NCBI GenBank assembly: GCA_963924565.1
Contig: OZ004608.1
Location: 29,512,001 to 29,576,000, forward strand
Direction: 5' to 3'
From: Ascidiella aspersa
Lineage: Eukaryota
Length of the DNA stretch: 64,000 nucleotides
The first letter of the stretch is position 1. Each line of letters opens with the position of its first letter. The notes under the pieces are model-generated. The model searched no databases, had not been told where the DNA came from, and worked only from the letters and a program-made list of their open reading frames with translations. This document shows, one piece after another, positions 1 through 52,700 of this stretch. The position numbers and the translations under genes are program-made.

Positions 1-3000
1 AAAGAAATAAAATATCGGTAAAAATAATTATTGTTGTAAAAGGATATGAGGCCCTAGTCTGTGTCAGGTAGTCACACATTGTAATGAATCCTTTATATTG
101 GTTGAATTTGGGTATAAAACTTTTATAATAAAGCCTATACATTTTACACAGACGCCATACCAAGGAACATAATGCCGTTCGGTATTTTTCCACCGAAAAG
201 CAACTCGACACCGAATGTTGCACACTGTTCGACGCGCCGATTGTAACAGAACACTCGCCGTGACGTAGCGTGACGTCAAATGCCAAAAGTGGTTCGGATA
301 AAAGAAGCAACTTTAACACATACCAATGGTACGCGGCAATAGTAGGTGGACAATGGAAAAATGTGTAACGTCACAATATGTGTCGTGCGGAATGGGGCCG
401 GGAGAGACCTGGGGTGGAAATTATCGCTACCATAAATATTCGCCTGCTGCCGAGGCGACATTCCAACGAGCTTTCGGGGCACGACTCAACCCAAGAAAAA
501 AAAAGATAATAATTTAGCACATGTTTTTTTAGAATACGACCTTTAGCCTTTTAAACTAATAAATTAAACAATTACGTTCGCGCAAAAAAAATGAAAAAAC
601 ATTACGCGACTAATAAACTGTACAAAATTAGGTCGTTTGCAAAAAACGCCAACGTAAAATTACAGCGGAAGCCCAGTTACTCAGCTCCCTTAAAATGCAC
701 AACTAAAGTATCTCCACCTTATGTTTTCCCAAAATTATTGACGATTTTTCTAAACTGACAAAAAAGATCAGGCTATAGCCTTTAAACACTCGCTACAAAG
801 TAACTCATAAAAAAAGTTCAGTCGCCTTCAAGAACTCCACAAACACATTACATGGTCGAAACCACAAAAACTTTCCTTGGTACCTTAGAGCCATTAAAGT
901 CATCGAGAAAATGATCGATAGGCAGAGTATGTTCTCCACGGTTGGCAGGTTATAAGGGTGCAAAGAAAATAGAATTCTCTCAAAATCGAAAACACGCCAG
1001 TTGACTTTTTATCATTGTTAAAGTCTGCAGACACACGCGTGTCAGAATAAGCGGGTTGGTCATAAAAAAAATGTGGCTAATCACCAAGTTTTGGCAGAGG
1101 GTGAAACGTTTATTCAGTCCGGTCTCACTGCGTTGAAATATGTTTTAATTATGAAAACGCAACATGCCGTGAATCCACACAAACTTGTTTTTTGTTGTGT
1201 TATTCAGCTCGTGGACATTACTGTATTTTGTTATTTCTGTTAATGAACTATTTTTAATAAATTGGATGTTCTTTCAGCAGTACAAAAGTCGGATCCGAAC
1301 TGCGGTCTGCCAATAGCGTTAGGTGGCCCGGAATGAGTAGTGGCAAATTTCAAAGGAACCATGATAAAAAAGAGGGCCAGCAACTATTGGACTGGCCTTC
1401 AAAACTGGCCAGGTATAAAGGTTGGCGGCGGCGGCGACAGCGGGAGAAACCAGTCTAAATTACACCGTAATAAGCGGTTTACCCCAGCGAACGCAGCGGC
1501 TTTGCGTGACATTCGCCAACGATGCTCCCTAGCCTTGACACGAACAGGTGACATCTTATATTGGACGCATTTATATATATATATAGCTAGATGGATAAAT
1601 AAGTGTACCAATTGGCGGAATAAAGGCCGCGACACAATGTCCCTTATGACGTCACGTCATGTCGTGCGGGCGCGATTCGCCGCTTCTCGTGTTCAACGTC
1701 ATCAAAGGACCTTCGCGCGCGCTTGGAATTGATACCTGCTGGACACTGCCGGGTCAGGTGTCTGTTGTGGGGCCGACCGGGGTGAATTCGGGGGCTCTTG
1801 GCGCGAAAGCAAACCGGCCCCGCACGCGACCCCGTGGGAAAGGTGCACCAGTTTTACACGGGCGTAACGAGTGTTGTGTTTTAACGGAAATTGTAGCAAT
1901 TTTCTGGTTAACGACGTCTTTATGGAGAAGCAATTGAACGCAAATGTATTTGATAATTTCTCCTATATGTATGTGCAATATGTATGTCCAATATATATGT
2001 CCAATCAGCAAATTTCCTACGTTTAATTAGGCTAAGAACAATCGCTAAGTTAAAATAATAAGTTGCAGTTGCACATTTTATGCTTGCGGTACCAAAGCAA
2101 TTAGATTCACATCATAAATGTAAAATCGTGTTTAAAATGAACTTGACATTGATTTACTAAATATGCTTCCAGTCGAATCCTATCAGTATCCCACAAAAGG
2201 ACCGTATAATATATTTCAAAAAATCTATAGTTCAAAACGGCAACAAAAAACTGAAAACTGATAACAGATTTACATGTAAAGATTTAACAGTAAAACCTGA
2301 ATTTAACTAAAAATCTCATAAGCCAAACGTTGTATTAATGGCACCGACTCGTTTCGTGATAATTTATCTCCGGGTAAAACAACAAACAACGTTCCAACTA
2401 CAAAACGGAGTTGACACTCGGTTTAATTAAAGTTTTATCTGATTTATGACTACACTCATTTTTTGGCACCCAGACGTCAAGCGTAATTTGCAGACCCCAT
2501 AAAGGAGAAAATAACATTGTTTAAAAGTGCCCACTAAATGGCTTTAAAGTTATTTTTTATCTTATTAGATCTTCTATAATTTTATGTCCTCATAATTATC
2601 CCTGTATTTAGAGTTAAGTGTAATATTACGATCACAGGATCTGTTATAACGACTTAATGTTTTACTATTTCCAAAATAACACCAAGTGTTAAAGGTTGCG
2701 AGCAGGATACATGCAAACATCAGATGTGATGATTTACTATTATCGTGGTGTCGTCAGCGAAAATTGTAATAACTACAAAACATCTATGGTGAGTCAAGTT
2801 TCGAGTTGCCTCAAAATGCAAATTATTATGGAACAACGTTTGACCCCTTGATATGTTGTGCGCGCAAAACTCCGAATCGTCAAAAACAAAAACACGCCAA
2901 CATGTTTGCAAGCCGGAAGAGACAATTTTGCACTCGGCCAATTTCTCCTGAAAAAGTTACATTTGATGGCGTGAGTCAACAGCAGGTAAATATGCGACTA

Positions 3001-16302: not shown

Positions 16303-19300
16303 ACAAGTCAAGTCATTAGAATTAAAAACAAATCGTCCAACGTATTAAGATTAATAAAATCATTTTATTCCGAGCATTTTTATTACACATAACAGCCAAC
16401 AAAAAAGCAACCCGTTTTACGCGTAAAAATTAAAGAAATTTCTCAAATTGGTAAAAAATGTATTTAACTAAAATAAATTTCACCCAAGTTATTTCACCAA
16501 ATAACTAAGTTAATACAATTCATATTACCCAAAATACTTCCCAGGTAAAAACGCTAATTGAAGTGTACTTAATTCAAGCAATTTTTCTCAAGTCATAACA
16601 ATACTTTCACAAAGCGTAAAACGACCATAAACAAGTCAACACTTTGATTTCGGAAGCAAATCCATAGAGAGGCGGAGCCCGAAAAAAAATCAATTACGTA
16701 ATTATGACCGGAGCTGAGTAGTGAGTCAGCGATCGGCGTTAAGATTCAGTACTGTGCTGACGCAGACGCGGGTACGCGATTGGGCTGCGGACTGCTGGTG
16801 ACGGACAGGCCCGGTCCCTTATCTGCCCTCCCATGTCCTGTGACACGGGCCTTTTATCACATCCGAAGTGAAATTACTCTAATTCGCTGTGAAATCGCGC
16901 GCGTCATCTCAGACCAACTTCTCGCTTTCCGCATCATATATACACGGAAATGGCATATGCTGGATAATTGGCAAAAATCGGCGAGGACTTGGTGAAGGTG
17001 TAGGTTCACCTGCTTTTAAAGATCATCTATACGTTGTATAATGAGGTTATTTTACAAAATTGTCGTATTTCAAATCTATTTTTTTAATCTAAGCATTAAT
17101 AAAAATCGTGGTTCCCAAAACGAAGAGACATAAACGCTATTTTTTGAAAAAGCTGTATACAATACTTTATAAGTGAAATTAAAGGTTATAACTTGAAAAT
17201 ATGATCTTTGGGTATTTTCTGTATACCCTTAAACTCCAAGTTTGAAAACGTATTTGTTAAAATACGGAACATAAAAACGCATTTAAGATGATTTATTGGT
17301 GTTTGCAGTTTGATTTACTACATCCGTTTTTTGCAGTTTAAATATTTCTCTATTTAATCGAGACAAATTATACAATAAAACAGTTTGCGGCACATCCGCA
17401 ACAGTTACCTAACATTGGCTTTAAATTCTATAGAAGGTCAAGAGAATCCTTGTTAAAAAACTTTACCACTACAACAACAAGTTCTTAGTATCTCTCTAAA
17501 CAAAATAGTAATTACCACGGAGTTTCCAAATTTAACTTACCGACAAATAACCTTTTTAGAAAGTAATCTTCATGTAACTGGCCAAATTGTAACGTATTGT
17601 TTTTAAACACTGACAAACATGAATCAATGAACACGCAGGTCACGCCTAATTAAAATTATAATCCATCAACATATAATGACTATCTCCATGTAAACATTGC
17701 CTGAATTAAGTGTTTCTTGTGAAAGTCGTAAATGCTAGTAGTAAAAATTTAACCAAAACACGATAAGTTCGGAGCTTAAACAAATACGCCTTGCAACAAA
17801 AATATTGTTTACTGAGGCTTAAACACTTTATTCCTCAACTAAGCTTAGCTTTGCCAAACTAAATTTTACAAGCCATGGGCAACATGGTTGGTGGTTTTAG
17901 CTTAAGCACTGCAATTTTACAAGCATTAGCAACAATTTCATTAACTCTTATGGACAATCGTACGAGTGCCAGCAATGAACTTGACCGCGTATTCCCCCAA
18001 ATGTATGGGGTACGCTAACCCCAGTTTGAGAATCCCTGTCCTAAGTGTACAAAACAAGTAAGACGATTACATTATAATTAGGTCCAAATATAACTAACGT
18101 AAACGTTTAGTTCTACAATTGTATTTTTTAGCCGTTTAGCTACGGACAAATCTCAAAGAAATCTATACACGTGAATGACCAGTTGACCACACAACCCTGC
18201 AAATCAAAGTAGAACAGCGACACACTTTGGTGTAGCTTACTGTAAGTTTAGAAGCACTGCGTTGAAGAGTAACTTTGCACCAAACTGTAGCAATTCTAAT
18301 AACATTTACCTAGCAGCAGAACTTAATTTGCTGCAAACATAGCGTTATGTCTAAAATGGTTCAACTTTGGACACTTTAATAAAATGTACTACAAAATATA
18401 GTAGGCACTTATTATTAGTTTATGATATACCACTAATATACCACAATAAAATTGAATATACCACAAATATTAGGAACAATAGACTATATTCTCCAATTGG
18501 TTGTGATGTCACAATAACAACATTAAATTAATTGAAATGGATTTACGTTTGAGTGTACAAATCCGGGTCACCTGAGCACACAACGCTTTATGGATTATCT
18601 AGCACGAAACTCCATAACTAGGCAAAGGAATTATTCATGCTCGAAATCGATATAATCCCACTATACATGGAACGCAGAAATACCGGCTGCTGTCTCCATA
18701 ATCCGATATGTGTGTGGCGGAGCCTGTCATAAGCCAAACAAGGCAAATAGTGGCCCACTAAGTTGTCGAGCTATCCCGAGACAATTTATGTATCGTGTGG
18801 GATTTGAAGGCTAATTTTAGCGTCGCCTTTCATCTCAAGTTTAGGTGGCCGGCACTTAATCCGCTCGACCGATTTAAACCGCTAAGCCGGAGACCACTAA
18901 AACCTGCTTTGTTTACTGACGTTTTCTCGGATTTGCGAACGCGCGTGTCTTTGACGTTGTCGGCAATAATTACACGACTTACGCATTGGAGAAATCAAGG
19001 AATCCGAATTGACAATAATCGTTATTTACAAACTATATTTGTAACAACAAGTGCGACTTGTTACGCAGGAAATTTTTACATGTAGGCCTACAATATTACC
19101 AAGGTGGTTTACGAGGAGTTGTGGTTATCTAAAACGAGAGCTTCCAAAACGGGGCCCCGATGAGTTTTAGGGGGACCGAGTAAACTATAACAATTAATAT
19201 ACAAATTGCTGAAGTCGAATCACTTGTATGTTCTAAATTTCAAAACGAAAATGTCCAAACTCATAAAAGAGACGCAATCCCCCTCAGTTACAGCTTACCT

Positions 19301-33200: not shown

Positions 33201-36200
33201 CTGTTACGTCACAACACGTAGAACGCCTATTGTGAAATCGCAACTTTGAAACCGTATCTGTTGTAACAGCAGCTGGTTAGTTAGTGGGTATGTGTTTGTG
33301 CTTTACAGCAAATAGCCTTCATGAGTTTCAATGGATTAAGTGCTTGATTTATAAAACTACGCTATATCAACAATCAACAAGTCACTGGTTCGATAAATAT
33401 GCAAAAATTCTTGGTTCGATATATATAAAAAAAGTTTCTGAGTAATGAATCGATGATACAAGCTCGTATCGAAACGTTTAATCAAGATGATGTCGATCCA
33501 CTCGAGCTATTCATTATTAAGCTATTACAGATTCGTACATATTCGTGTGACCAAATTACACAAGTTCAACCTTACAAGTTACAACACACGTTCGTTTTTT
33601 ATCACTATCAGATAACTTGCTATTAATTTTCCAACATTTTCCATAAAATGATTCTCCTCATAAACAAGGTAAAATAGAAATCAAAATTAGTTTTCTTTAT
33701 TTGCTTTCGAGCATGTTGTGTCAGTTAAGTCTGGTGTTTTAAAATAATTTTTTTATCTTTTTAAGGCAAACACTGCTTGACATCATCAAAATTGCAAAGA
33801 ATGGGACATAAAAGGCTTACAATTCTGTTAAAATCGGATTTAGCAGGAATTTTCACTCATTTTTTCGCTCAAAGAATTTCGGCTCTTTTGCAAATTTCTA
33901 GGAAACGGAATATCAGAGTCGGATCAGTCATTTTTTCACGTGTACGACACAAACAAGTTTTGTGACGAAAAATGAAAATGAAATAGGATTTAACAAGAAT
34001 TTTTACTCACTTTTTTCTCATCTGGTCAAATCGGGGCAATTCCGCTGCGTATTCAGTAAGAATGTAAATCGGCTCTTGGGCCTATCGCGTGCCGACGGGA
34101 AAAGACGATTATGTGCGCCGCGTAGCGGACCAAAAGCAGAGCTGGTCTTTTCCGAGAAAGCAAAGTAAAACTCCCGCACTACGGGCTTTCACTTGCGACA
34201 CGGTTAAAAATACCTGGCTGACAAAAACACGTAGGCTGCTGGTAACTGTTCAGCAACCTGAAATTAAGCCACGGTTTTCGCACCGCCCCGTGCCAAGTGT
34301 TAAGGCCAAGAAACAAAGCGCTAATTGGCACGTTTTGCTCTCAACGCGAAGTTTGGCAAAGTGCCCGCTTTGTAAGCGCGCTGACTGTCGACATTATGCG
34401 CCCAGGTGGTTGGTACACTTTGTCATCCAAGGAAAGATTTCACCTCTCAACCTTTTATATTAAACTCTTTTCTTTTACTTTATTAACTAATTTGCTTGAC
34501 TTTTTAAAAAAACGAACCTGAGTATGTATACACCGTGTTGCATGCAACACACTAAGAAATCCATTTTGGCGTGTTGTGCAGAATCGGAAGCGTCAACACA
34601 TTATAAAGCTTTCAGGTGACTATTTTATATGCTGGGAAGTTGGACATTACATGATAAACTTTTTTGAAAGGTATTGCATTATAAGAGAATATAAGGCATA
34701 TTGATATAAGAGAATATAAGGCATATGTGTATGTCTTCTATTCTCAAATGTAGTGTGTACGGCTTTATAATGAAAGAGGCGTTTAACATAAAAAATGGGG
34801 TGAAACGATTGGAAAATCAACTTATTCTTTGATACCCTTATATTAGTTTAACCATAAATAAATAAATAAATCACAATCAACGCTGTATAGTGTATATTAC
34901 CGTAAGTTTGATGAGAATCAAACTTTCGAAACACAGTATTAGATTAAAAATTAAAAAGGCCTTAGAAATGGCAAAGAATCGCAAAATCAATGACGCAACC
35001 ACACACGACCTGTTTTTACGACTGACAACTGCCATCGTATAGAAACCTGAAAAAGCAACTAAATTCTCACGTAACCGTGGATCGGCGCACCTGTCCAGCA
35101 CTTCAAGCCGCGACAACTCGCAACATGCAAAAGTGTCAATTCGACGCAGTTCAACGAGCCAGGAGCGAAAAACACCATCGCACTCAAAAGTGGATGTGCT
35201 GTTTGCAAACACAATTAGAGCCCGTGAGTTCAACAACTGTACCGCGGCCAAAGGGGTTTGAATGCGTTTTGCGACGCCCCAAGACGAAATTGATGCGAAT
35301 TGCGATCAAAACAGGTGCACTCACTTGCCACGGACCGCCGCTGTGCCTCGATAGGTTCGATTTGCGGGAGCTTGCAAGTTTTCCAAACTGCCGTTCCGGT
35401 TGGCAAAGAAAGGCGCCGACTGTAAAGCAACCAAACACATTAAACCTTTCGCTTTGAGATTCGATCATCACCGCTTATTGTTAGTGTGAGTTAGTGGGCA
35501 AGCCAATCTCGTATGACATTTTTATTTTCATTGATCATTGAATGATTTTCACATAGCTATATTCCAATTTTAAGTTTGAAAAAACATTTTTTTTCCTTTT
35601 TATTTAAAAAAAATTAGTGTTTTTTTAAGTTCGTGTGCAATAGCGGCATCGGCAGTTATCCAACTGGTAAAAATTTTGTAGTTGTAATGACAATAAAAAA
35701 GGTATTACGTTATAATTAGTGAACCGCGTAAGATATTAAATTACGGAGAATGCAAAACAACGCTTTCGAAAGGCCTTTCTTTTGAACAACTCTACAACCT
35801 ACGTCAGTATTAGAAGTAAAACGTTTATCTAAATATGGTCATCATGACGTATGCAGTTTTAATGACGTTGTTTTTTTCCCACGTCGCTGAATTTTCTGTG
35901 CACACAGCTTCAAATCGGACGGGGAATTTCAACAAGCTGTTTACGGCCGAGCGCAACCGTTTGATCTTTCCAGCCCGAGAACTCGCTAAAGCACCAGGTC
36001 GACTAAATTGATTGATATCCCTTCCGTTACATTCGCGACATTTGACAGCCTCGTTTAATCCGGATGGAGTCCTTTCGCGCGCCGAGATGCAGCGACTGGC
36101 ACAGCTCTCCCTGGAAATAATCTCAACGTGGCACAGACCACAGAATCAACGTGTAGCGCCCGTTTTCGCAGGAAGGTTACAGATCTTCGTTGGCGGTTGG

Positions 36201-39200
36201 CGAAAGGCGCCCGTCAAAGGCAATTCTGTAAGCTGATTAGCGCTTTCCGGAAGCCTTAGCGAGGCTTTCGTCTCAATGAGTTGTTGCTCGCTTGACGGCC
36301 TTTTGCAAAAAATCAGATAGTTCTGACGCACTCTGCCATCTCGCGTTTGCAGCGTCCAATGTTGGATTTGTCCTAATTCGCAAAACTAAAAATTTGGCTG
36401 CCCCATGTCGATTTGGAATAAAGTTGATTTTGAACCTTTTATTTTGCATATGTGTTGTGTTATGTTGTGTATTCGTAAGCTTTTAGCTGTTAATGAAAAA
36501 AAAAAAAAAAAAAATATGGCAGACATGTCCGATGGTATTGAATGAAGCCAATATCAGTTGCAAAGTGTTAGTTTTTGGAAGATACTTGGGGTGCATCAAG
36601 GGTCATCTGATACCAATCTGACATTGGCCTTTTTGTAGCAATTGGAAATAAAATACTGCTTTTCTCATTTGAAGTTACTTTTAAAAATATGTACATGAAC
36701 AATCAAATTTATTCCTAACTCTAATTAGCATGTATTCCCGCCGAGCGTCTTTCATTCCATCTTTGGCAGTACAAGGTTTTGTCATCAATATTTCTGTACC
36801 ACACTTTTCGGCCAGGTGTCTGTTACCGCGATAAAGGTTTTTTGTTCTACTTTTTAATATAGTGAACGCTACCTCAGGACATTCGCCCCAATAAAGTACC
36901 TCGAGTGACGCAGATTGTAACTAAAATTATTCTTTCCCTCTGGAAGTCATTTGGTTCCCAAACTTTTATGTCTCGAAGCACCCCCAGAATAGCTTGCGGC
37001 ATCCATACAAGAATTTGTGTGAGGTAATTCACTAAAATGTTACAATAAACCGAACTGAAACAACACGCATCAAACTCTATACACAATCTAGGGAAATGTT
37101 ATTTAACTTAATTGCTCACCAATCGTACACCAACCATTGTATTAAGGCTCAAGAGATATTAGATCAGCTAAAATCAGATTCTTAAATATTGGTAAAATCT
37201 CTCGTCACCCTTAAGCATTAGAAATGGCACTTAGGTTGGAAATCATTGGTGTAGGCTGATGTCTCCTCACTCTTTTAGAGATGTCGTCTTTGCTTCTGAA
37301 GTGGCTTGCTGTTCGTCGGAACCACTAACCGCTTTACGTCAAATATTCAGCGCTTTCAGTCAGGAGCGAAAGATAACATAGAAACTTTAAAGCCGCCCGC
37401 CAACGCTGACTGGCAACTTCGAATGTTTTATAGCTGATCGTAATCCTATCGAGCCAATTTAGCGATTGGCGGAAAATCTTGTAATCCCTGTCAGAAAAAC
37501 AAATCGCCATACTAATGAAGCGGTTTTCCAGTCGGAGTTGTTTTGATACAAGTGCAGTTTCGCAGGATTCGCCGTTTTCACTGCTTCGTAGGCGGTCCTT
37601 TCAAACCACTTGATTTAAACATCTTTAAATCAAAAATACGATTCGTGTGATGTTTTATATAATGTAACTATATTCTATTCTTTATGCAAAATCGGCAAGA
37701 CTTTGGGCGAATAAACACGTTTTAACAATGGATTTCGAAAATATGTGAAAAACTACATTTTAAATTTAAAATAAAGGTATTTATGAGCCATTCAAAGGGT
37801 CACAATTAATTAAAAGTTTGAATGTGACTTTTGAAATTGAGGGTGATCAAGATTATTTTGAATTTAATCTATCAAAAAACCTACCCTTATCCTAACGTCC
37901 CTAGCAATGATGCTTTAAAAAGGAAACGGAGCAAATCTGTCGAACATAGAATTAAGCACGTTTCCGCTTATTTCTGCTTTCAAACGCGACACACAGAAGC
38001 ATGAGTAATCGTGTGGTTTAAATAGGGGGAAATGAGACAACTTGTAATCGCCCAATCCGTGCTAAGCCTCCTATTACATAACGCCCCGTCAACTGCCTTG
38101 GGCTTGAAGTACTTTACGTGACATGTTTCCTCAGGAGATTTGCCAGACTTAACCGCGGCGTCACTCGAGGTGTGAAAAATGTTTGCGAGTCAATGGGTGG
38201 AAAAATATCTCAGAAATCCCAGAAGTTCAACCGGGTTAGCGTTAAAGAGTGGCGGCCGGCGCAAATTTCTTAAATCTCAGCGTCGCGAGCCGCCAGCACA
38301 CCTGCGCCAGTTGCAAGCAAACCCGACTACTGGCTACAACCCGAGATCCCCGGCACGAAAAAAGCGACCGCGCGACGCCCCCTGGCGGCGAACCGTGAAA
38401 ACATCCGGCAAGGAATTCGAGAGATCGCGTCTGACGAAGCATAGACGGCCTTTTTTGGATAATCTGCGCGACTGAGTCAAGGAAAAAGCTCGGAAGTCGC
38501 CTATCGGAAGCGCACCGGGTTCGAGATCACTTCAAATTCAAGACGCCGTGCCGCGCGCGTCACAGACAGCGGAGAGCCGATCGAACCAAATTTAACTCCA
38601 GGCTGGGAGCGGCTAATGGCGGCGTCTGGCCGAAGGCGCCGACGGACAGTTGGGCACGTTCCTGCGGCGGCCTAAGTCGCGTTTGCTTTGGCGCGCCTAC
38701 CGTTGCTTTTCGTCACCTCGTTGACGCGAGGGCGAGTTTGTTTTGGGGGCCTTGCCCCACGCTTTTACTATTCTTATGATTATGTTATAGGTGTTGTACT
38801 GCTGATCATACGGGGGGCTAGGTCTATAGCTGCCTGTGCCGCCAGGTTAGTCTTGTAATATTGAGTACCTTGGGGGAAAGGCATCCGCAAAAGACGCCCG
38901 GTATGATTTAAGTAAAGTACCTTAGTTGGTCGTCATTTTCATATTCTATTTCGCAAATACAATACCCCAAAACAAATATTGAGAGTTTAGGAGAATTAGT
39001 TGACCTCTATTATAAGCTAAGTGTGTTTTCGACAGTCCACACCAAATTAAAAACAATTTATATGCATCGGTTGTTTCGGAGACAACAGAATTGCTGTAAA
39101 ATTTCTGTAAGTATATGATAATTAAATGATAGCTTTTTAACAGGACCTCCAAATATTTTTCTAGTTTTTGGAATTAAAAAAATGCATTTTTGAGATTGTA

Positions 39201-42200
39201 ATAACCTCACATAATTTACCAGTCAGTTTTCAACTACTGACAAAAAGTGCTTATAGTTACTATACCTGGACACACGCTCTTTTAAATCTTTTCGAGGATT
39301 TCTTTTTTTAGTTAAACATTTTCTGTGTATTTTTAGACATTTCAAAGATGCTGGGTATCGTGTACGGAGGTCCCATTTTAGGAGATGATTCTGTACACCG
39401 TTAAACAGGTTATTTTTGAACTTGTTCAACCTACATTTACCCAACCCGGGTTGAATGAGTTTACACAAACTCTCCTTGTGAAAAGTAGTTGACCCAGCTC
39501 ACGGGCCACAGCCCCCAGAGTAATTCCATTACTACAGGCCATACAGTTGTGGGAGAATTAGCAAAGGGGGGAAGTTGCGGGCTATTCGGGTATTTATGTC
39601 CTTGTAAGTTTGCGTAACCCTTGCACAAAAGCTTTTCTTCGACACAGTTGAGTAAAACACCGCACCCGACTTGCGTGCCATTCTTACCGGCCGTTCTCAA
39701 AGTCATTATATTTTACTGCTTTTACGCGGAACGTCTTTCCGTCGTTTTCTTGGCATGACGAAGTTCGTTATCAACCGATCTGCGACAAAACTGGGTTCGG
39801 TACCACAGACGACAAAAACAACCTGTCGTGAAGCCTAATACGGCGCTGTAGGGGTGTTTTTTTCCTATTTGCCCCGGGGTTACTTTGGGACATTCGTCCT
39901 TTTAAAGTGCTCCGAATGACGAGGTCCCACCTCATCCTTTTTGTGCAGAGTTATGAGGTAAGCCTGCATAAAATAAATTTGGCCAACTTTGTTATTCATT
40001 TCCTCTGTGTATGTTTCATGCTGGTTTTCGCTGGAAAGCGGTTGTAGGAGTTCTGTGGCGGGAAGTTTTTCAAGTTGCAATCTTTAATTCATCATGTAAA
40101 TTTTATACCAGGGCGTATAGCCGCGTCTTTTGTAAAAAAACGACGTGGTAAAAGTGAACGTAAACGCAAAAATACTGCAAAAAATTGTAAATCATTAGCG
40201 ACCAACGATGCAAAGATTGTGTACAATCAGGTGAACCTATATTGTTTCCTGACCCAATCAAGTCAGTTATCTCGTTAACTGTATGTCGCAAATAAAATTG
40301 GATTAAATATGCTATGGTTTGTTAATAAACTATTATATGGGAGAGCCGCTGTGGACTGTATCCGACTCAGTAATCATTTCGGTCCTTGGTATGCTACATT
40401 ACCTGATGCGAAAAGCACGTGAACTCCTAATGCAAGACGCGCCCTTTCGCGGAAAGTTCTATTTTTATCAGTAATTGTGAAACCAAACCCGAGCCGCGTT
40501 GGACATCGAGGGAAATAACGACAACTTGCGTTTGTGCTTATCAATCACGTAAGTGGACCGACAGCTCGGCCATGGTAACATTCCCGCGAAAGTGACCGAC
40601 AATTTCGTTCCGAGCGTGCCCGAAATTCCATGTATTTAAACGGGGAGACTCTCTGCATGGAACGGAACATTCTGACCTTCAGGTGCCCAGAAATCTAACA
40701 TTATTCAAAAATTAAACTCGTATTTTTAAGTTTTGATTTACGTCGTGGTCTAAGTTTGACTAAGCCACTAAGAACAATCCAAGCTGTGGTTTCGTGACAA
40801 ACTGTAAAGGTGCCGGTGGGGTGGGTATATATTGGAGTACTGCACCCTACCAATAACAAAATATAAAGTTGTGATTTTTTCTCAAAAGAGTAGAGGTCCT
40901 ACAGCCCATAAATATTGGACATAGTGCCGTTTTTTTTGACAAAAAACAGACCAAGATATCATTTTTAGTCGATAAACTAAACAGAAATGATGGTGTAAAC
41001 GCCGGTCTAAAACAGCAAATTTGTTAGCTTCAAAATTGACAAAATTGTAAGCAGCGTTAAAAATAAGAGACCATTTGCTATTAAACATATTTTTGGCGAA
41101 CTTAGCCTACTACTTAAGCTTCCGTTCCATGATAAGTTTAGTGTTCCAAAGCGCTTTACTCAACTTAAAAATCAATTTACCAGGAGCGTCCGTCGACCGA
41201 AAGTATATCTTCATCTCCAGCGCAATGGGCCTTTCGAGGAATTACCGATCGTGTAGTAGAAAAAAAACAACGAAACGCTAAATCTAACGGCCCGGTCGTC
41301 GGTCGAAATGAATCGCAATTTCGAGTATTGCATTACACCGAAGATCGCGTGTTCTCGCCTCGTTTGGTGTGGGGGGTGATTACTGGGGGGAGTTTAGCGT
41401 GCCGCGCGAGCAAAAGCCATTACCAGGCGTTGAAATTGGAGCTAGAACGCAGTGAAACTGATATACGTAGATTCGTACGGTTGTTTTGCTGAGCTGTTAA
41501 ACGTGCGAATGAGAGAATTCCGGGCATGCTGATTTGCGTTGCGTGACGCTGGTATTGGATGAAGGTAAACGCCCACTCTCGTTAAGGTTGTTTTTGCTAG
41601 TGACTTTTTAAACATGGGGACATTGGACAATGTTGGATGATCTTTGTGGAAAAAGCATGTTTCAGTTTGATTTATAAGTCAGTTCAGCAGATTAATGGCC
41701 TTAAGTCATGACTCTATACAGGAACTTTATACAGGAACAAGGCTATGGCGAGTTTAACCAAAGTAATCACACATAAGACGAGTTGTCGGCAAATTCGTTA
41801 TGCGGAAAACGAAAGAAGAATTATTATGTTTCTGATAAATTTTTGTTATTAAAATTGTACATTTGCCATTACATAAATCGGTTAATAACAAAAAAAAAAT
41901 CATGGCAATGTCGATATTTTAAACATAATTCTCATTCTGGTACGAAAAATAATCCGCCTAAACGTTTACCTTAACCAACATATTATACACAAGTTTAACG
42001 AGTATTGAAAGAACTATAGTCTTTCGGTTAAAAAAGATACACCATCGCTTGATTTATGAAAACACTTAGTAAACAAAAGCGTTACGTCATAAACTACATA
42101 TGTCATTTTCATAGAAATTTATTTGGAGACGCACAAACAAAGGCGTCTTCGTTACGACATAAACACATGCACGGCGTTTGGGGGAGGGGGACAATCGCAA

Positions 42201-43617
42201 TTACGACACGGACAAAAATATAAAAGAAACAACAACAAAAAACAACCGTAGAAACGCGGAGAAGTGATTGCATGATTTTGCGGCGCACGACGTCACAAAA
42301 GCGTTGATTATTACGTCACAAGGCGGGCGCGGTGATTTCATCACTTTATTAATCGAACGTAAAATAAAAAGTGTGGTCTGGAAGTTAAGGCAAGATTTTA
42401 AACGACGTGAAAAAACACGACAGAAAACTCGTCGCCAAATTAAGCGACACACTCTTTTGTACAAAGTCGTTTAAATCAAGTGTAACGGCGTTTTTAGTTA
42501 CGATATGTTTCATATCACAAAGTATAGTGCACGATTACCAAAACAATCTCGTCAAAGTACAGAAAAATTTCATTAGATAACTCGCAAATCGGTAATACTG
42601 TGGGCGAAATTTGAACTGCACAAATATTAGAAAAAAATACGCGTTTTAGTTTAATTTCGTGGAGTAAGAAAACGCAAAAGAATAAACCACACGAGTATTT
42701 TTACTTCTCCAGAAGATTCAAGCCGATTGAGGCGTGGTTAATATATAAAAAAAATGTATTGTGTTAATAGTTTAAATTGGGTTAAAACTCCGAGGTAGGC
42801 GTTCTTAGCTATTTTGGAAAGCTTTGCTGAAAATGTTCTCTGTATGATAAAAAAGGCAGTAAAAGACTTACAGGTCTAAGTATTTCTATTTGAATCGAGG
42901 TCTCATAAAAAGAGGTCCAAAAGGGAATAGAAAGCCAGCAAAAAGCACAAATGGAAAGATAAACTTTTTAGTTCAGTTTTTTTTTTTAATTCTTGACAAA
43001 AAAAAATGGTGTTTGCGGTGCGCGAAAATGCAAAAGCCTCGACAGAAGGGGACTGGACGACATTTGAGCGTCGAAAAACACAGAACGGAAAGTAAAAAGG
43101 ACAAAAGAGCGCGGCGCGTGCAGATTCGGCATTTCGTTAGGAAGTCGGGCTGTAAGATTTCGTGTATTTTGTATTGCGAAAGATCGGCAGATAGATAGAC
43201 ACGTAAAAAAGAGTAATGGCACGATTTCGGACTGGTTTTCCCGAAGAGGAATATGGAAGTTTCACAACAGGTGTTAGTTCAACTACTTACAGATATGAAA
43301 AAGTACCATACACAAGTTTGCTACATAACAAGATACAGAATTAAATTGTACGAATTGAAGCACAAGTAACGCGAATATGACGCGGTAAGTTTCCTGCACC
43401 AAGACAGCTGTAGTCTAGAATGAAAGTTGAACTGTCAGTCGGGCTAATACTGGGTCACCAAAAACGTAATTGGCAGTCGGCGTAAAAAAAGACGATGTCG
43501 TACTCGCTTTGAATTTTCTTGCACCGCAGAAAAAATATTTGTTTAAAACTGTTTTATGATGAAAGGTATAGTTGAAAGATAGTGTTTTTTTTTACTTTGA
43601 AATTTTGAAAGATTTTT

Positions 43618-43623
43618 TTTATT
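43618..43623 (-). terminator. Candidate polyadenylation signal (AATAAA) for ERC
   Basis: First AATAAA on the minus strand, ~120 nt after the stop. It sits in A-rich sequence, and further AATAAA at 42345-42350 and 42118-42123 could be the real ones. Confidence 0.25.
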
Positions 43624-43744
43624 TTGAAAGTTTGAAAGATCATTGTTTGTGGGGCATTGAATCTCCTCGCGTTGCTCATGGAGAAGCTGCGATATAATGT
43701 TGTTGGTCAACACTTTTTTTGACGGCAGCTGAACGTACTTTAGT

Positions 43745-43771
43745 TTATGCCCAGATTCCCTCGCCATCGTC
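43745..43771 (-). CDS. ERC1: ERC terminal coding exon DDGEGIWA* (PDZ-binding IWA motif)
   Basis: ttttttaattgacgtgtctag|GAC GAT GGC GAG GGA ATC TGG GCA TAA; phase 0 matches previous donor; matches the vertebrate neuronal ERC C-terminus (D/E)EEGIWA. Confidence 0.93.
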   Translation of the reverse strand, partial: DDGEGIWA

Positions 43772-46700
43772 CTAGACACGTCAATTAAAAAAAGACTTTG
43801 CGTTAGATTCTGCAATTCGTTATATTTACAAAAAAATCAGTAAAAATAGCAACACAGCCTTTTAACCAAGGCTGCCAAGTCGATTGAATTTCTAGAGCCG
43901 GGACTCTGGACTCGAGTAAGACCACCCGAGTCCCGAGTGCATCGTGCACCGTACGACATTTTAAAACTGATATAGCCGCAAACTGAAACTGATATAGCCG
44001 CCAACTGCAAATTGTAAAGGTTGAATAGCATATGGTGGAATATTTTACCACTTAGAGTGGGTGGATAAAATTACATAACACCTCATGAGTGGTTTCCTCA
44101 ATATCCACCTTATCTAAGTTACGTAAATGGCTGAAATACAGACTGTAAAGTCGCAGTTGTAGTCAAACTAGGGATTTGTTAGTTGGACTCGGGCTCAGTT
44201 TTTGTCCGGAGTCAGACTCGGGAGTCGAACTCGCATTATTTTCATCCGACCCGCAGCGCTGCTTTTAACAATGATGGAAATTTGATTCCAGGTGGATGAA
44301 AAGCAATTTTTAGCCGCTTTTAATAAAAATAAAATGGGAAAAATGATAGTGAATTGATTTATTGTAAACTTTTAAATAAAAACTTATTTCACGAATGGAT
44401 CTTTTGGGGGAAAGAATGGGAAGGAAGAATAAAACACAAATTTAAAAAGTTTTATTTTTAAAGTGATAAACAAACAACCACAATATTTGACACCAAAACA
44501 ACATTTCCAGCCATTTCGTCGTCCGCTTTCGACTGAACAAAATACCAGTAAAGACCGCAGCGGTCCAGTCCTTAAAATAACTCCACAGAACAAAAATAAC
44601 AAGAATCAAAGTCGGTCGAACGAAAACAAGGGCTTGACTTCGGCGAAGTCGCGTTCTAATTAGCAGGATCAAAGCCACGGGCGCGGGTTCAAATACAGAT
44701 CGTACCACCAGTGGCAAGGCAAAGTGGCAAAGGCCAGCGGCTGGAAATTTTGCCCAGCTGACAAGGCCACCGTGGAATGGCTGTGGTGTTGGTAACCTAG
44801 TTGGGCTCGGTTAATTGGCAGTTTCAAGAGCGTTATCGTACAAGACCCTGGATTCGTGCCACGTATTTAGTCGGTAGTAAAAGGGTTTCTGCCTACAAGG
44901 CAACGTAATTGTCTTGTGGAATCGCTCTCTTTGCGTGAAGCTATTCGGGGACTGATCGCGCGATGAAAATAGTCGTTTCGGATGAGGTAATTGACTCGAT
45001 AATTCGCGATAATGGCGCGTTGCCGAAATACAGAGTGATTAATTGTATGAGAAAGGAAATCTGTGGAATGCGCCGAACATAGGACAATTTGCAAGCATTC
45101 GCTATGTTTGTCGCATTTTGCTATTGTTTTGAAAAAAAATATACTAAAAACGTGCGACATTGGTAGAAAAATCTCACTATATTTGTCGCATTTTGCTATT
45201 GTTTTGAAAAAAAAATATTAAAAACGTGCGACATTGGTAGAAAAATATCATTATATTTGTCGCAGTTTGCTATTGTTTTGAAAAAAAAAAGTAAAAACGT
45301 GCGACATTGGTAGAAAACGTCACAAAATTAGATATTTTAACTCGAATTTTTGTTATATTGCATTCCGATCAAGAACCACACGCTCTAAAAACATTTCAAG
45401 CAATCTGAGCCCATTCAAACCAAAGGAAGAAATAACTGACCAAGGAACTTATTACAGTAAGAGCACCTAACTATATACGTGCTGAAATTATATTTTCAAT
45501 TAACTCATTTTACGTGCAAAGTTGATCACTTTTCAACTAATTAATTCTATTTTAATTAGGCTTTTATGGACCCCTAAAAGGTAGTTCACGTGCCCCAAGG
45601 GGTTTATGGACCCCAGTTTAAGAACCCCTGTTCTAACTGATAGCAGCCCTGATGAGGGTTCTCCTTGCACAAAACATGCAAATTTCTCACCTCTCCATTG
45701 GCCGGTCTATACCGAGGCTTGCCGTTGCCTTGTCGTGCCTGGGCTTGTTGTTGTTGTTGAGTCTGCTGCCTTCCACCAACCGAGTTACTTTGTTGCTGCT
45801 GCAGTTGTTGGTCGTCGTTTATCGTGTCTTGCATCAGCTTCAAGCGGTTCTGCGTCTGAAACAACAGTAATAACGAAGTCTATTCGTTGAATTGAATTCC
45901 CTATTTTTGTCTGAGCCAGCTTGTGTCGAAAGCTTCACGCGACTTTCGTTCAAATAGTCAATAGAGAACAAACAATTGTAATTAAAAATCTTGGCTTTGT
46001 TAATCGGTGTAGTTCTGTGCTAAGCTAAAATATGCCTGCATAGAATCGACCATTTTCCCCTAATCGACCAAGTTTTGGTCAGTTAGGTAACTGCTTAAAT
46101 TTCTAAGCATCAATTCAATCCATTTTTATGTTTTGTTTTACGAAAAACAATTCTATTTTTTTAAAGCATGAAGATTATAATAGAAATAAACAACTGTGAC
46201 TGGTTTTGCAAAGGAATAACACTTTTTTGTCAAAAAGGACGGAAAAATTTGTAGCCCCAATAGAAAACACACAACAAAGCAAAACGTATGGCAATGACAC
46301 ACACAAAAACTTTTCCAGACAAACACTGCCACCCCGTGGCGAGACAAATACCTCTCACCATTGAAATTCGATCGTGTATTTTTAGACGCCAAACCAAAAC
46401 AAGTTTTCGAAAAAGAATTCAAACGGCAACAAAAAATTCGAAAGCCGTTATTTCGTCGCACGGCGAAACAATGGACCATTGTTCGCCTAAGCAAACGCGT
46501 GGTTTGAAAACGATCGGCGTTTTAGTGGATTCAAGTGCAGTGACCAGGTCTTAACCTGGGCAGAGCGCATTGGGACAGACGCGCCGTTTCGAAGGTGGTC
46601 TTTAGGCGGGCGCGAAAGGCGGCCATTAGTTTGTTTGCGCTGCAATCCACAAAACCGTAATTGCCAGGAATTTCGAGGGCGGCGAGTTCGAAAGGTGAAA

Positions 46701-49700
46701 ATGCAGCCGGGCACTTGAGAGGCGTTGCAGCTTACAAGAGCCTTTAAGAAGAAACAGCAGGTTGCACAAAAGTTCATTGCGCTGTTATATATACAATTTT
46801 TTCTCCATACATTAAACAATTCAGGGTTGCCATAGAATTGTATGAAAAAATTACCCGACATTCAACTATACTTTTCAAAGAAAATTTGTCGGTTTATAAG
46901 ACCTAAAATGTGATCGCTTTACACTTTTATTTGAATATAATTCGGAACAGACACAACTCGAAAAATAACAGAACAGACACAACTTGAAAAATGGCTTTTC
47001 GTGTGTTTTTTACACTTTGGTTGCCGACTCGAACTTACATGCTGTATAAAGCGTACAGTCTGTTTTCTTCTTGACCTAACATCACAGTTTTCAGTACAAA
47101 TAAAATTTTGCCAAAAGTGAAAACAACAAAATGTTGCCAAATTTACCAAAACGGTTGAAATTACAACCAACAAAAAATACGAAAGGTAAGCCCAACAAAC
47201 ACTGAAGTGCCCCCAAATCGTTTTTTCGGCCGTTTTAAAAACCAAGCCACAGCAGACGCGAGATTTCGCACACGCTCTTCGAGAATGTCCATATTTCGAC
47301 ATGGCGTCGCAGATTAATTACGGTAGCTATTCTTTCTGCTGGCAAATCCCGAAATTGCACGGCTGGCCACCACCGGCGCGTAGGCTAATCCCCACGCACC
47401 GCCAAGCACAGAATTCGGCCAAATGCGCACCTCAATTGTCCGACATGAACGCTAATTGCCGCTTGCCTTAGCGTGCCAAAAAGCAGACGACAGTGCATAT
47501 CCGAAAACCGCCGCCGCCGACCGAAGATCGAGAAAAGGAATTTCCTCTTGGCCGCTAACAAAGGACCCGGCTACGTAAATATGGAATTATCGACACCTGC
47601 CACAATGGCCGAGCACTTGGACCTGTGAGACGCTTTGGCGGATTTCAAGGCTCGGCGTGTCGCTATAGAGGCCGGTACCTGTTGACACTGGACAGCCGCA
47701 ATTATTTGTGTTTGCGACGTCGTTTTGATTTTGTCGACGCGACAGGCGTCTGTGATTCATGGAGGTTACGCGAGTTTTTTTATACGCCAAAGAATTTACG
47801 CGATTGCAGAAAGCGCGCTAAGATTTTGGCGTTTTTTTGCTGTACGGCGGATAACTTTTGTAAATCATAGAGGCCTTGGTGCCAAGAAGAGACTTGAATA
47901 CACCAGGAGAGGAGCCACGATCGGTCAACAAGAACACCCCTGAATAAATATATGGACCCTTTTCAGACACAAATTGAAGACCCTGTTTAACTCACGGTAA
48001 CTTTGATAAAAAAGGTTCTATTAACGACCAGGTATAGAACCGTGGTTCTCAAAATTGGTTTGTAAGAAAGTTAAGGTGCCCACCCAACTTCTTTCAAGTT
48101 AATTGCATATAATTTTTTTGGAGAAAGCACACCCGTATTATCGATTCGCAGTAGTTAATGTTCAGGTAGTTTTTGATTTCCCTTTTAATAAAATGTATTC
48201 CTTGGTTATTTTAATAAGGCAAAAGGAGACCGCTAGGTTAAAAAAGTTTGAAAAGAATAATAAAACGTCACCTAAAATACAAACTTTGTTAAAAAAAATC
48301 GTAAAACATAGCAGAACGAGACAGAAAAAAAAAAATCATTGAGCTATAGGAAGAATGTAGTCACCCGAACTCCCTGTAAGTTATTTCCTTGATTTACAAA
48401 AATATTTTATTTAGCAACGTAGACCGAACGTCGGCAATTTTTACCAACCTAGACCAACCGTCAGCGATTTTGGGGGGCTGCTAATAGACCCAGGTGCGAA
48501 AAGAGGCCGCGTTTCGACGCCGCCATCTTGCCAAGCAAAATGGCCTGGCAACAACGCCAAGTCTTGTGTGGTTTTCGCAGCTGTGAAAGGCAAGTGAGTT
48601 CAGGTTGTGGTACTCCAAAAACACTTAAACCCTTCGCGGAATAGCGTGTTTCTATATACGACCAGACACACTCGATGCAAAAATGCAGGAAAATAGTTCA
48701 GAAAAATGGAAAACAAAGGACCCCAATGCATCGGCTGGCGCTAAAAGCGCTCAGGTCGCAAAGTTTGCCGGGGCCTTGCGTTGTTGCGCGGCTGTTAGAG
48801 GCACGGGAACGGATTTTTGCGGCTGCCGGATAATTGCGGGTCGCTGCCGGCGCGACAAGTTGAAGAGGTCGGGCTCGCCGTCGCAGGAAGCGAGCACTTA
48901 ATGCGCTTTAACGCCATCGCGGCCGCGGAATGCGGAAAGGGGATTTTTTTCCGATGAGTAATTGTTTGTGGTAAGCGCCGTTAGCGTTTTTTTTATAAAG
49001 GTTTCAAGTGTGGGGCTCTGTAGACTTGCACCATGAAAATCCTGGAAACAAATGCCCTGTAAGGGATACTGCGGTATTTTAAAATATAGCCTACTTCTTA
49101 AACTACACAGCAGATAATTAGCAGTTGATACCTAAATAAAAAAGTACCGAAAATTTTATATTTCTGTAAAGAAACCTAATTAATCGTGTCAAAATGATTT
49201 TTGTTGCGACTGTTTAGAAGTATGTTTTTGTATTAGGTGGTAGGTTTAGAAATATTATGACGTCCTTGCCCTTTTTTTCTATAGAGTAACCTATAAGACT
49301 TAGTCAAGGTAAACGGGAAAATAAACAGTAAGATCCACAAAGAAACGATGCCCAAAGGTGACAAAAAAAGTCAAGGGCCACACATATTCATAACATCACG
49401 CAAAAGCAATTGTGGCCAATCAAACCACCGCAGAAATCCGATGTCAAAGACCCAGTTAACTTTACCCAAAGTCGCGCCAATTGGAAACGTGACAAAACGC
49501 CATTCGGTTTCGGAAAGAACCGCGCAAAATGGCTGACCGCGAGGCGGCACTTTTCACAACTACAGCCTTACAAACAAGTGCTGCATTTTCGGCCTTACAC
49601 AAAAGTTTATGCGGCAAAGTTCAGCAAACGGCTCGGTGCCAGTCGCCGTCAGAAACCGCATCTGCTAACCTCGAAGCGACCTCGTCGAATTGCCGCTTGC

Positions 49701-52700
49701 CGCGCCGCAATTTTTTAGGCGTTTTGCCGCGCGCGTAATGGCACGTTTTTTTCGAAGGGCAATTAGCGCCGATGAAAGCCGCCGCTTGCTTTTGCGGCGT
49801 GGCGTGGTTTTCTTTGCACTTTTGCGCAACGCCGAATTGCAGCGGCGAACGAACGCTTAGTGCAGGGATTCGTAAACTGGGGTCCTTGGATCCCCTTTAG
49901 GTAGGTGGACTAGTTTATGAGGTAGACACATCTAAAATGTTAGTTTATTATTTAAAAACGTTATATATTCTGTAAATAAAAATATGTGATTTAAAAACAA
50001 AACGCTTTGTCGCCTTCTAAGGTTTCCTTGTCTACATGTTTTATGGGGTAATTTTTTATAATAAAAAAGCATGCTGACCGTCGTACACTTAAACAAAATG
50101 TTTATGGGTCCGCGCTTAAATAGTCCAGTCCCTGGCTTCTGTGGTTTTGCTTGAAACAAGTATAGCAGTGGTTGGATCGCAACCTTTCCTAAAACTTTTA
50201 CATGTGGTCCACTGACAAGTTTTTTAAGGTCCAATATAAAATGAAGGACAATCGACAGAACAAAAAAGGTATTTTGAAAGTAACAATTTACTTCCCAAGT
50301 CAGTGCAGGATTGACGATTTTTGTATTTCCAAGTGAATGGGAGTTAATATGATTTTAAACCAAGTAGTTAAGAAAAAACAAAGAAATAGTATTTATCTAA
50401 TAAAATGTGTGACATTTTGTCTTCAAGACGGCCCTGAAAAATTCAGTTTAACAAAATAGATTAAAGCTAGAAATTCCGTGAAAAGCGGTGTCGTGCTGTC
50501 GAAATTTTTGAAAAGAAGGCGGAAAAATGCATAACATTGAGCCAAAACAATTAATTTATATGCGAATTACGCAACGGGTTTCGAAATTGCAAAAAAAATC
50601 GCCAAACCAATTTATTTCCATGCGGTTTACGCATCACAATTCACAAGAGATAATCTAGATTCGAGAGTGGCATTTACCAGCAAAATACACGTTTGAAACA
50701 GAAGCATTCTGGTAATAAGCTGTTTGGAGAGAGAATGACAAGAAACGTCCGAGGATAAACGGCCGGACGCTGTCAAAACAACTGGCCTATTGGTTACACA
50801 ATAAAGCCAGCTCGTAAAGCAATTTGCGCTCGAAATTGCCGGTCAGCCGATGTTTGACCTTGAGTCGCGAGTGTCAAGGTCGCGCGTCCATTGTGCTCGC
50901 GCGGAAACGAAAGCGGCGTTCACACGCGCTGGAGTTTGTGACGTAACAATAGCCCGGCTCGCGTATCCGGGAACGCGGAAAGTAATAACCAGCGTGTCCA
51001 GCGACGCTATGGTTTTCGCGCCTTTTACGGCGACGTTTGACGAAATACAGCGAATTAAAGCGTTTTGGGAGAACCGGCGACAACGTGCTGGTCATTATGC
51101 GCGTCTAGAATATTTTGCCAAAGCCAGAATCTTCTTTGAAAAGTACACCGAAAGCCATCGCAGACTCACCGAATCTGTTGATCTATGATGCAAGCAGAGC
51201 AGACTAGAAAAACAACTAGCCTGCAGCGAGGTTCGAACTCACGACCTCCGGTCAAGCCGGAACCGTCGCTCTACCAACTGAGCTAGGCTCAGAAGGGAAC
51301 GAGTCGAGAAACAACCATACGCCAATGCTTGCTCAATCTGTTAGTACAAGCAACCTCATTGAAGGGGATCCACAGTACCATATCATTTATTCAATGAAAC
51401 ATTCACACATATGTGTGTTAATAGCTCTTAGCTAGTCTGCTCTGCTTGCCTCATAGATCAACAGATTCGGTGAGTCTGCGATGGCTTTCGGTGTACTAAT
51501 TATACGTAAGCCGAAGTCGTTGGTCAAAAAGCAGCCCCGAAGGGCCAGATCTCAGCTATTAACACACATATGGGTGAATGTTTCTTCTTGGAAAAAGGCG
51601 ATATTTGTTGTGCGCTTTTTATGTATCTTTAATTGGATTCGAATTTTTAGATAGAACCGTCTCCTGAATTAATTTTATTGTAACATGTTGTTTTATTAAA
51701 CCTTCAGCTATATTCTACAAAAAAAAATCGTAAAATTCGTATAGCCGGTTGAACGTCACAAAAAAGCGAAACTTTTCCATAGGTCTTGCGTGACAAAAAT
51801 ATTTGAGAACCAGTGTGCTATAGTACCTGAACGTTTACCCTTTCACGATATGAAAGCTTATCATTGTAGACCAGGGGTTCTAAAACTGGGATTCATGGAC
51901 CCCTTGGGGGTACATCATTTAGTTTTAGGGGGTACATGAAAGCTTATTTGAAATACTAATAAATATTTTAAAGTAATCAAATTGCAAAGAAAATAGTGTA
52001 ATAAAAGTAAAACTTGATGAAATGTATGTTTAGAGTTCATTGCGCTTTGACATTTTTTTGGATCGAAAGAAGCAGATTTTTGTCTATTTTCTTTGTGACA
52101 ACAATTTATGAAGTTATCTATAAAAATCCTTGCCTGTACTGGTCCACGCGAAGCAAAAATATTTTTTAGGGGTATTCCGTGAAATAAATATAAGAATCCC
52201 TGTTGTAGCCGATTACCTGTTGCTTGAGCTGCTGCACCAGCTTGTCCTTCTCCCTCCTGAGAAGACAAACCTCCTCTGCGTTCTTGCTCTTGCGCGACTG
52301 CGAGAGCTCCAGGAGGGCGATGTTGGCGTCTTTCTCGCTAATGGCAGCCAGAAGAGCCTCCTGCCTGGAAAAGCGGGAAAGGGAATGGATTTCGGAAGGA
52401 GGAACATACAATAGCGATTCATTTTGTTTTTTAATTTTAATCATCCAAATTTTATTTAGTTAATAACAGCCAAAAAATTTTACCTTTAGATTATTATCAA
52501 TAATGTTTAATCGGTAGCTTTTTGCCGCGCTTGATAAAATCTGACTCAACATTGCCTGCAAACTCATATTATTTATCCCAGTCAAGTACCGGTGTGGGAT
52601 GATGCCTGATTCTTAATTTCGTTTGTAGGCCGCGTGTTCTATTATATATGACTCGGTGAAATGTAGATTGTAAAATTGTACATATACACCCACATTAGTT

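Follow-up and report, generated by a model that had tools for sequence, protein, structure and literature searches.

A CpG-rich block domain running from Wnt5 to the penultimate ERC intron of Ascidiella aspersa: a likely Wnt5 cis-regulatory domain

The window analysed here is a stretch of 64,000 nucleotides from the Ascidiella aspersa genome (contig OZ004608.1), whose minus strand carries the 3' part of an ERC gene. Twelve exons fall within it and join into one open frame of 498 residues, closing with IWA-stop at 43771–43745; the gene extends at least 22 kb rightward past the window. The exons match the Cast domain (PF10174, best E 2e-26 in a profile search), which places the gene in the ERC/ELKS/CAST family, as does the C-terminal IWA, presumably the PDZ-binding end, with which the distant orthologue L114 also terminates. 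Reading from the 3' end on the minus strand, the last coding exon (43745–43771) is followed by the last intron (43772–45690), a Q-rich penultimate coding exon (45691–45855), the penultimate intron (45856–52216), and ten further coding exons with nine short introns (52217–61556). The introns in the window measure 823, 638, 691, 1870, 459, 604, 850, 679, 1421, 6361 and 1919 bp. The original prediction had set the last two (6.4 and 1.9 kb) apart from the others, mostly of 0.4–1.9 kb with few blocks; outside the window, however, introns at the ERC 5' end reach 2.1–6.4 kb, and five of the 17 mapped are of 3.3–6.4 kb, the longest being 6.4 kb and none exceeding 10 kb. An alternative ERC C-terminus bearing the RBD-FIP domain (PF09457) was considered and rejected, as its only matches lie elsewhere in the genome, at C9 and at 14 Mb on C2.

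Left of position 1, the next gene detected is Wnt5, on the minus strand and in tandem behind ERC, just as had been predicted. It has five coding exons encoding 357 residues (G000:C2:29465017-29476348) and lies 35.7 kb from the window and 79.4 kb beyond the ERC stop. Ascidian Wnt5 proteins are its top named matches, placing it closest to the Wnt5 subfamily, and it shares 59% identity over its full length with the Ciona match. Against the PDB entry for Wnt-5a the locus scores 158 bits, compared with at most 135 for Wnt3, 3a, 7a and 8. All eight Wnt5-group queries rank it first among 10 Wnt loci (350–450 summed bits against at most 282), as did two control queries, and in a one-exon Wnt tree of 24 rows it sits on a short branch in an open fork.

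The original prediction also described some 43.7 kb past the ERC stop as a desert free of exons. No coding sequence was detected there, but the nearest ~2 kb are the ERC 3' UTR (41840–43744, minus strand, ~1.4–1.9 kb), identified by one-strand RNA coverage at a depth of 2.7–7.3 in bins 41839–43839 that falls to zero in 40505–41838; candidate poly(A) signals are found near 42345 and 42118. Beyond the UTR, no gene was detected across the 79 kb separating ERC from Wnt5 by ORF, exon-candidate, Pfam and Rfam searches, together with RNA for 32501–41838. The RNA, about 6% of one run chosen by its species label, covers position 32501 onward, or 9 of 77 kb once the UTR is set aside. None of 98 ORFs of at least 80 residues starting before 51120 (100 such ORFs minus two overlapping an ERC exon) matched Pfam, the ERC exon positive control having worked. 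Exon scoring gave no chain of strong exons in the interval, on a scale that gives 4 of 14 true exons scores no better than those of the top spurious candidates, and the Rfam search returned a single tRNA-like match, inside a repeat. Weak one-strand RNA (0.3–0.4x) is seen at 39171–40504, overlapping an exon-like stretch at 40030–39931 that has good splice sites and a poor codon score.

FBXL14, a member of the Wnt5-7 block in other animals, was sought with domain profiles, and among the best candidates scored no F-box or LRR_6 match is listed in the 364 kb around the locus. The interval contains no long ORF. Elsewhere in the genome 26 F-box-like matches are listed, and among the short stretches read by eye, which leave aside some short exons, none was recognised as FBXL14; PF25372 has no match anywhere in the genome. 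A 411-residue LRR_6 frame on C8 was rejected, as no F-box could be seen in it by eye. Nor do the listed matches include a second Wnt in the 150 kb past Wnt5 or in the 100 kb to the right of the window. That the interval instead hides a gene that escaped recognition, a long non-coding RNA or alternative ERC 3' exons is, in our estimation, most improbable: the weak one-strand RNA over the exon-like stretch and the RNA coverage of 9 of 77 kb speak for it, while against it stand the Pfam, Rfam and exon-chain results, the RBD-FIP matches found only elsewhere, and the F-box and LRR_6 searches, which list none in the interval.

What fills the interval is CpG-rich blocks, defined as at least 24 CpG per 300 bp. 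The prediction that such blocks crowd the desert is borne out. They cover 31% of positions 1–41800, where 27 blocks of ~500 bp were counted, and 47% of the ERC penultimate intron, whereas the median for 48 tiles of 10 kb spaced evenly over the genome is 3%. A further 23 blocks lie in the part of the interval left of position 1, and ~30% of the interval as a whole is in blocks. Together they form a continuous, block-rich and repeat-poor domain of ~98 kb with sharp ends, from the 3' end of Wnt5 to the ERC penultimate intron, with ~55 blocks of unique sequence, some 500 bp in size, from the Wnt5 start to that intron. Block fraction is 0.26–0.74 in every one of the ten 10-kb tiles spanning −50 kb to +50 kb, and only 2 of the 48 background tiles reach the lowest of them (3 with a looser and 6 with a stricter threshold). 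The fraction peaks at 0.86 over Wnt5 itself and drops to 0.00 past the Wnt5 3' end, where the genes are compact and of housekeeping type, and to 0.05 overall in the nine short ERC introns. The blocks had been said to continue into the last two ERC introns; they do so in the penultimate, with five at 46301–46750, 47151–47950, 48601–49100, 49401–50000 and 50651–51300 that form the right edge of the domain, but the last intron is unremarkable, with one block (fraction 0.16) and one-third repeats.

Such blocks might also arise neutrally, if unmethylated, untranscribed DNA retains its CpGs and GC-biased processes gather them into patches, leaving few functional elements among them. CpG observed/expected is indeed near 1 over most of this genome (mean 0.98, 48 tiles), and PMC3827831 describes Ciona methylation as targeting the bodies of broadly expressed genes; in favour of this explanation are also the motifs, which do not favour the blocks, and the want of a clear constraint signal within the species (see below). 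Background tiles, however, are seldom blocky, repeats are depleted (8% against a genome mean of 20%; 2% within blocks and 15% outside them), and the pattern is strongest on Wnt5 and reappears at most of the other Wnt loci, 7 of 9 having a tile of at least 0.17 compared with 4 of 48 background tiles, a figure to which Wnt exons contribute. We regard a neutral origin as very unlikely.

The five named motifs were counted in repeat-masked sequence of positions 1–41800 and compared with a local-shuffle expectation. GGATTA alone is clearly enriched (27 against 16.6 expected, p 0.016). It occurs at ~2-fold its genome rate and, with genome correction, ranks 4 among 2079 hexamers. The other four are without locus-specific signal: the TCF motif (12 against 7.0, p 0.10), the AP-1 motif (5 against 2.9, p 0.15), AGGTCA (17 against 11.9, p 0.13) and TGACGTCA (3 against 0.4, p 0.016, but 7.6-fold enriched genome-wide). 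None favours the blocks. With 31% of sites expected inside them, we find 4 of 15 for TCF, 6 of 29 for GGATTA, 3 of 8 for AP-1, 6 of 21 for AGGTCA and 2 of 3 for TGACGTCA, and in the penultimate intron the motifs are nearly absent (one TCF, one GGATTA, two AGGTCA and no AP-1 or TGACGTCA). The description of the blocks as motif-dense is thus not upheld. Post-hoc k-mer leads (e.g. GTGGGA, 17 against 7.7) are not taken as evidence. The locus also suggests that, in this genome, developmental regulatory domains are better marked by how densely CpG blocks lie than by counts of short motifs.

In L114 the homologous intron has a block fraction of 0.50 against 0–0.11 upstream and is the CpG-richest stretch there. 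No alignable non-coding sequence is shared with this single distant orthologue (intron scores peak at 36, against 31–43 for shuffles), and 8 metagenome ERC loci gave matches in exons only. Runs X5 and X4, labelled as another organism or a metagenome, were discarded as a cross-species comparison, being near-identical pieces of the same species. Within the species, divergence shows no significant relation to block content (rho −0.08, 8 contig pieces; rho −0.6, p 0.21 for the 6 non-UTR pieces).

The blocks in the last ERC introns could be enhancers or splicing elements of ERC itself while the interval serves Wnt5; the linkage would then be due to inertia or to intergenic elements only, and ERC would be a neighbour rather than a true bystander. 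Introns at the ERC 5' end are long and have block fractions of 0–0.26 (0.02–0.26 in those of 3.3–6.4 kb), so the gene has sequence of regulatory appearance in its own right; in addition, the named motifs are nearly missing from the penultimate intron, and it shows no alignment with L114 above shuffles. On the other hand, block density runs on without a break from the interval, ends within the penultimate intron and is followed by nine introns with almost none, and the mammalian precedent sits in the 3' end of ERC2 (PMC8768504). We consider this explanation unlikely.

The reading we prefer is that the interval and the ERC penultimate intron are together a Wnt5 cis-regulatory domain, with ERC as bystander in a genomic regulatory block of long standing; this is likely overall. 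That the interval serves Wnt5 is very probable, whereas for the penultimate intron the chances are even, although it is the best candidate host of bystander-borne Wnt5 enhancers. A domain spanning Wnt5, the interval and this intron is what the regulatory-block model expects, and with Wnt5 found where it was predicted, that reading of the desert is supported, its putative enhancers being known from their composition. The ~55 blocks would be regulatory modules unmethylated in the germ line, which may reach the Wnt5 promoter across as much as 87 kb, and selection against disrupting or filling in this field would hold ERC beside Wnt5. As the ERC–Wnt5 linkage is already known, the value of the locus is practical: it offers mapped edges and ~55 discrete candidate Wnt5 modules in a group with quick reporter assays, and singles out one intron in which to ask what has kept ERC next to Wnt5 from early animals on.

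Published reports of the linkage extend from corals through Ciona to vertebrates (PMC2922100, PMC8851819, PMC9750109), as part of a Wnt5-7 microsyntenic block comprising wnt5, wnt7, fbxl14, atxn10, erc1/2, cacna2d and others; Ciona and vertebrates are reported to have the ERC–Wnt5 pair, and for coral and amphioxus the listed members of the block include ERC (same sources). Our locus resembles this block in that ERC adjoins Wnt5 in a gene-poor stretch, and differs in that neither FBXL14 nor another Wnt is among the matches listed around it and that compact, housekeeping-type genes follow Wnt5 on its 3' side. In human, the element RE1, which lies in the last ERC2 intron, makes contact with the WNT5A promoter and directs expression in the outflow tract, with reporter, contact and TBX20-binding data, although deletion of mammalian RE1 left Wnt5a expression unchanged (PMC8768504). 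At both loci the 3' part of ERC contains DNA that looks regulatory, 70–90 kb from Wnt5; RE1 is functionally characterised, whereas the ascidian intron is described by composition, precedes the stop codon, and is likened to RE1 by position, not by sequence or intron homology. More tentatively, and with considerable doubt, ascidians may have kept, despite their scrambled genomes and the rapid turnover of their non-coding DNA, a vertebrate-sized long-range circuit in which penultimate-intron enhancers control Wnt5 from 82–87 kb, descended by position rather than sequence from the ancestral element field of the cardiac RE1. If true, this would supply a mechanism for the ERC–Wnt5 linkage across tunicates and vertebrates, along with five 500-bp blocks to try in ascidian embryos. 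In the genomic regulatory blocks Isl–Scaper and Otx–Ehbp1 (PMC3514665), conserved non-coding elements have been demonstrated, as has the action of enhancers on the target, and the neighbour has long introns, where here we have composition and introns of at most 6.4 kb. What the present locus shares with them is the arrangement itself: a developmental target, Wnt5, beside an unrelated neighbour of ancient linkage, ERC.

The search of the genome (309 Mb, 75 contigs, with the window on contig C2) for the wnt family gave 35 matches, which we grouped into 10 loci. Four of the matches lie on the minus strand at C2:29465020-29471697, and the Wnt5 gene, with five exons encoding a 357-aa protein, starts with its ATG at C2:29476348, 35.7 kb to the left of the window on the same strand. 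The first protein matches of its last exon are ascidian Wnt5 (Ciona, Phallusia, Styela and Halocynthia, among the best 120 of 680), which suggests that the genome is that of an ascidian. Among solved structures Wnt-5a comes top at 158 bits versus at most 135 for the others. All eight Wnt5-group queries scored this locus highest of the 10; two control queries, both drawn from this gene's own match list, also did so with smaller margins. In a Wnt tree built from one exon (24 rows), the gene sits on a short branch within an open fork. The two genes are in tandem, with 79.4 kb between the stop of ERC and the start of Wnt5, so that the original prediction of a minus-strand Wnt5 left of the window was a correct forecast of the gene neighbourhood, which was itself already known. 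Just past Wnt5, at C2:29451405-29456741 (loci L014:2749-4741 and L015:9405 onward), are compact genes with long uninterrupted frames: the start of an RsmB/F-type methyltransferase, a protein with LRRs, and a frame of 775 aa resembling MCM5.

At the other end, 10 of the 18 rows of the domain search for Cast lie on the minus strand at C2:29564214-29598230, and about seven of the remaining eight represent one repeated spot on contig C9. Twelve exons in the window form a 498-aa ERC frame with GT-AG edges throughout, ending in IWA-stop at 43745, and this mapping bore out the ERC intron sizes first given. Right of 61556 there are six more ERC introns of 2.1-6.4 kb; the 6.4-kb intron is therefore not unique within ERC.

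The part of the interval between the two genes that lies in the window, ~43.7 kb from the ERC stop, had been described as a desert without a credible exon. This holds in that Pfam gave no match in 98 window ORFs (at least 80 aa) and 12 left-side ORFs (at least 130 aa), the ERC exon used as positive control being matched, and an exon scan gave no chain of strong candidates; it does not hold for the ERC end, where one-strand depth in the RNA run X7 (~6% read) is 2.7-7.3 at 41839-43839 and zero at 40505-41838, indicating an ERC 3' UTR of ~1.4-1.9 kb. The exon scan scored the real exon within its range at 27.0, with the top other candidates at 17.8, 17.2 and 17.2. The median for 14 true exons was 31.0, and since four of these scored 18.5 or below, the interval could hold a lone weak exon. 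Over 32501-41838 the X7 RNA has both-strand depth at repeats, and no splice joint was found there among the 15 joint rows listed (171 further rows). A weak one-strand signal (0.3-0.4x) at 39171-40504, on the strand of ERC and overlapping an exon-like stretch at 40030-39931, may reflect read-through, extension of the UTR or a non-coding exon. Rfam gave nothing but one tRNA-like piece within a repeat. FBXL14, the usual Wnt5 neighbour, was not recognised in the interval or among the F-box or LRR_6 matches of the genome and may have been lost, diverged or missed. Many F-box genes (loci L029-L031, L049-L053, L057) each consist of one long open frame, 350-620 aa in length, perhaps a sign that housekeeping genes have widely lost their introns.

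The CpG-rich domain of ~98 kb is real and well bounded. In the window, the desert has a GC content of 0.403 and a CpG o/e of 1.19, compared with background values of 0.365 and 0.98 from 48 tiles of 10 kb spaced evenly over the genome. With blocks defined by at least 24 CpG per 300 bp, each of the ten tiles between −50 kb and +50 kb (negative positions being left of the window) has a block fraction of 0.26-0.74, whereas the background median is 0.03 and two of the 48 tiles reach 0.26; at thresholds of 20 and 28, three and six background tiles reach the domain minimum. The left limit is the 3' end of Wnt5, beyond which CpG o/e falls to 0.5-0.8, and the right limit is near 51300 within the penultimate ERC intron (45856-52216). 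Blocks had been described in the desert and the last two ERC introns, and are indeed abundant in the desert and the penultimate intron (0.47), but the last intron (43772-45690) reaches only 0.16; the nine short introns plus exons have 0.05. Block counts are 23 for the part to the left of the window, 27 for 1-41800 and 5 for the penultimate intron, with a median length of 500 bp. Among the nine other Wnt loci, seven have a tile of at least 0.17, versus 4 of the 48 background tiles, Wnt exons contributing to this figure. Repeat content, measured against a sample library of ~770 kb, is 8% in the desert (background mean 20%) and 2% of block bases. At the right edge of the domain (51129-51586) lies a repeat of high copy number whose head resembles a tRNA (Rfam tRNA at 51218-51288, 30 bits), likely a tRNA-derived SINE, and pairs of similar arms of ~100-250 bp at 21994-22246, 52412-53411 and 61835-62435 are likely MITE-type elements.

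The description of these blocks as motif-dense was not supported: none of the named motifs prefers blocks, and only four of their sites lie in the penultimate intron. GGATTA alone is clearly enriched (27 observed versus 16.6 expected from local shuffles, or 12.6 with genome correction applied; fourth of 2079 hexamers), and its excess is limited to the window, with 9 versus 14.2 expected to the left. GGATTA/TAATCC is densest at 17659-33333, which holds 19 of the 29 sites in 1-41800, mostly outside CpG blocks, and clusters locally at 18592-18857 and 33039-33333. The TCF motif is mildly raised (12 versus 7.0, p 0.10), and neither AP-1 nor AGGTCA is significantly enriched over local shuffles; the factor names TCF and AP-1 are assumed, in part following the original prediction. 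TGACGTCA is in excess genome-wide, 7.6-fold over dinucleotide expectation in the background tiles (L061-L108, repeats masked).

A metagenome contig from an apparently ascidian-like source carries a distant ERC whose exons match and which shares the IWA end. Its intron homologous to the penultimate one is ~3.9 kb long with a block fraction of 0.50, compared with 0-0.11 upstream, and the two introns gave no alignment above shuffled controls. Another individual differs from the assembly by 1.0-3.75% in the eight pieces shown, across which divergence had no significant link to block content. At 39166-47113, the sequencing runs X2, X5 and X7 share non-assembly alleles at many of the listed sites.

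With gene order and composition observed directly, the most likely reading of the domain is a Wnt5 enhancer field that would fill it and extend into the 3' end of ERC, ERC being held beside Wnt5 as a bystander. We infer enhancer activity, low methylation and looping, as well as the cause of the ERC-Wnt5 linkage. Ascidian Wnt5 is reported in caudal muscle, tail-tip epidermis and notochord (PMC6457572, PMC6060547), and several expression sites fit a modular field. The five blocks in the penultimate intron are candidate drivers of Wnt5. Among titles and abstract openings, most subscription journals being outside coverage, we found no ascidian Wnt5 enhancer inside ERC. In human, an element in the last ERC2 intron, ~70 kb from WNT5A, is reported to contact the WNT5A promoter and to drive outflow-tract expression, and its deletion in mouse to have no effect (PMC8768504). 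Criteria for regulatory blocks (PMC3514665), tunicate Wnt5 copy numbers (PMC5882950) and gene-body methylation in Ciona (PMC3827831) have been described. The Wnt5-7 block is reported to be of low gene density (PMC8851819; no Ciona row among 30 of the 153 curated rows of its supplement). Proximity of Erc1/2 to Wnt5 is reported for both Ciona and vertebrates (PMC2922100), and the linkage of WNT5/7, ERC1/2 and FBXL14 is described as strong and old (PMC9750109); the locus described here adds to this known neighbourhood.
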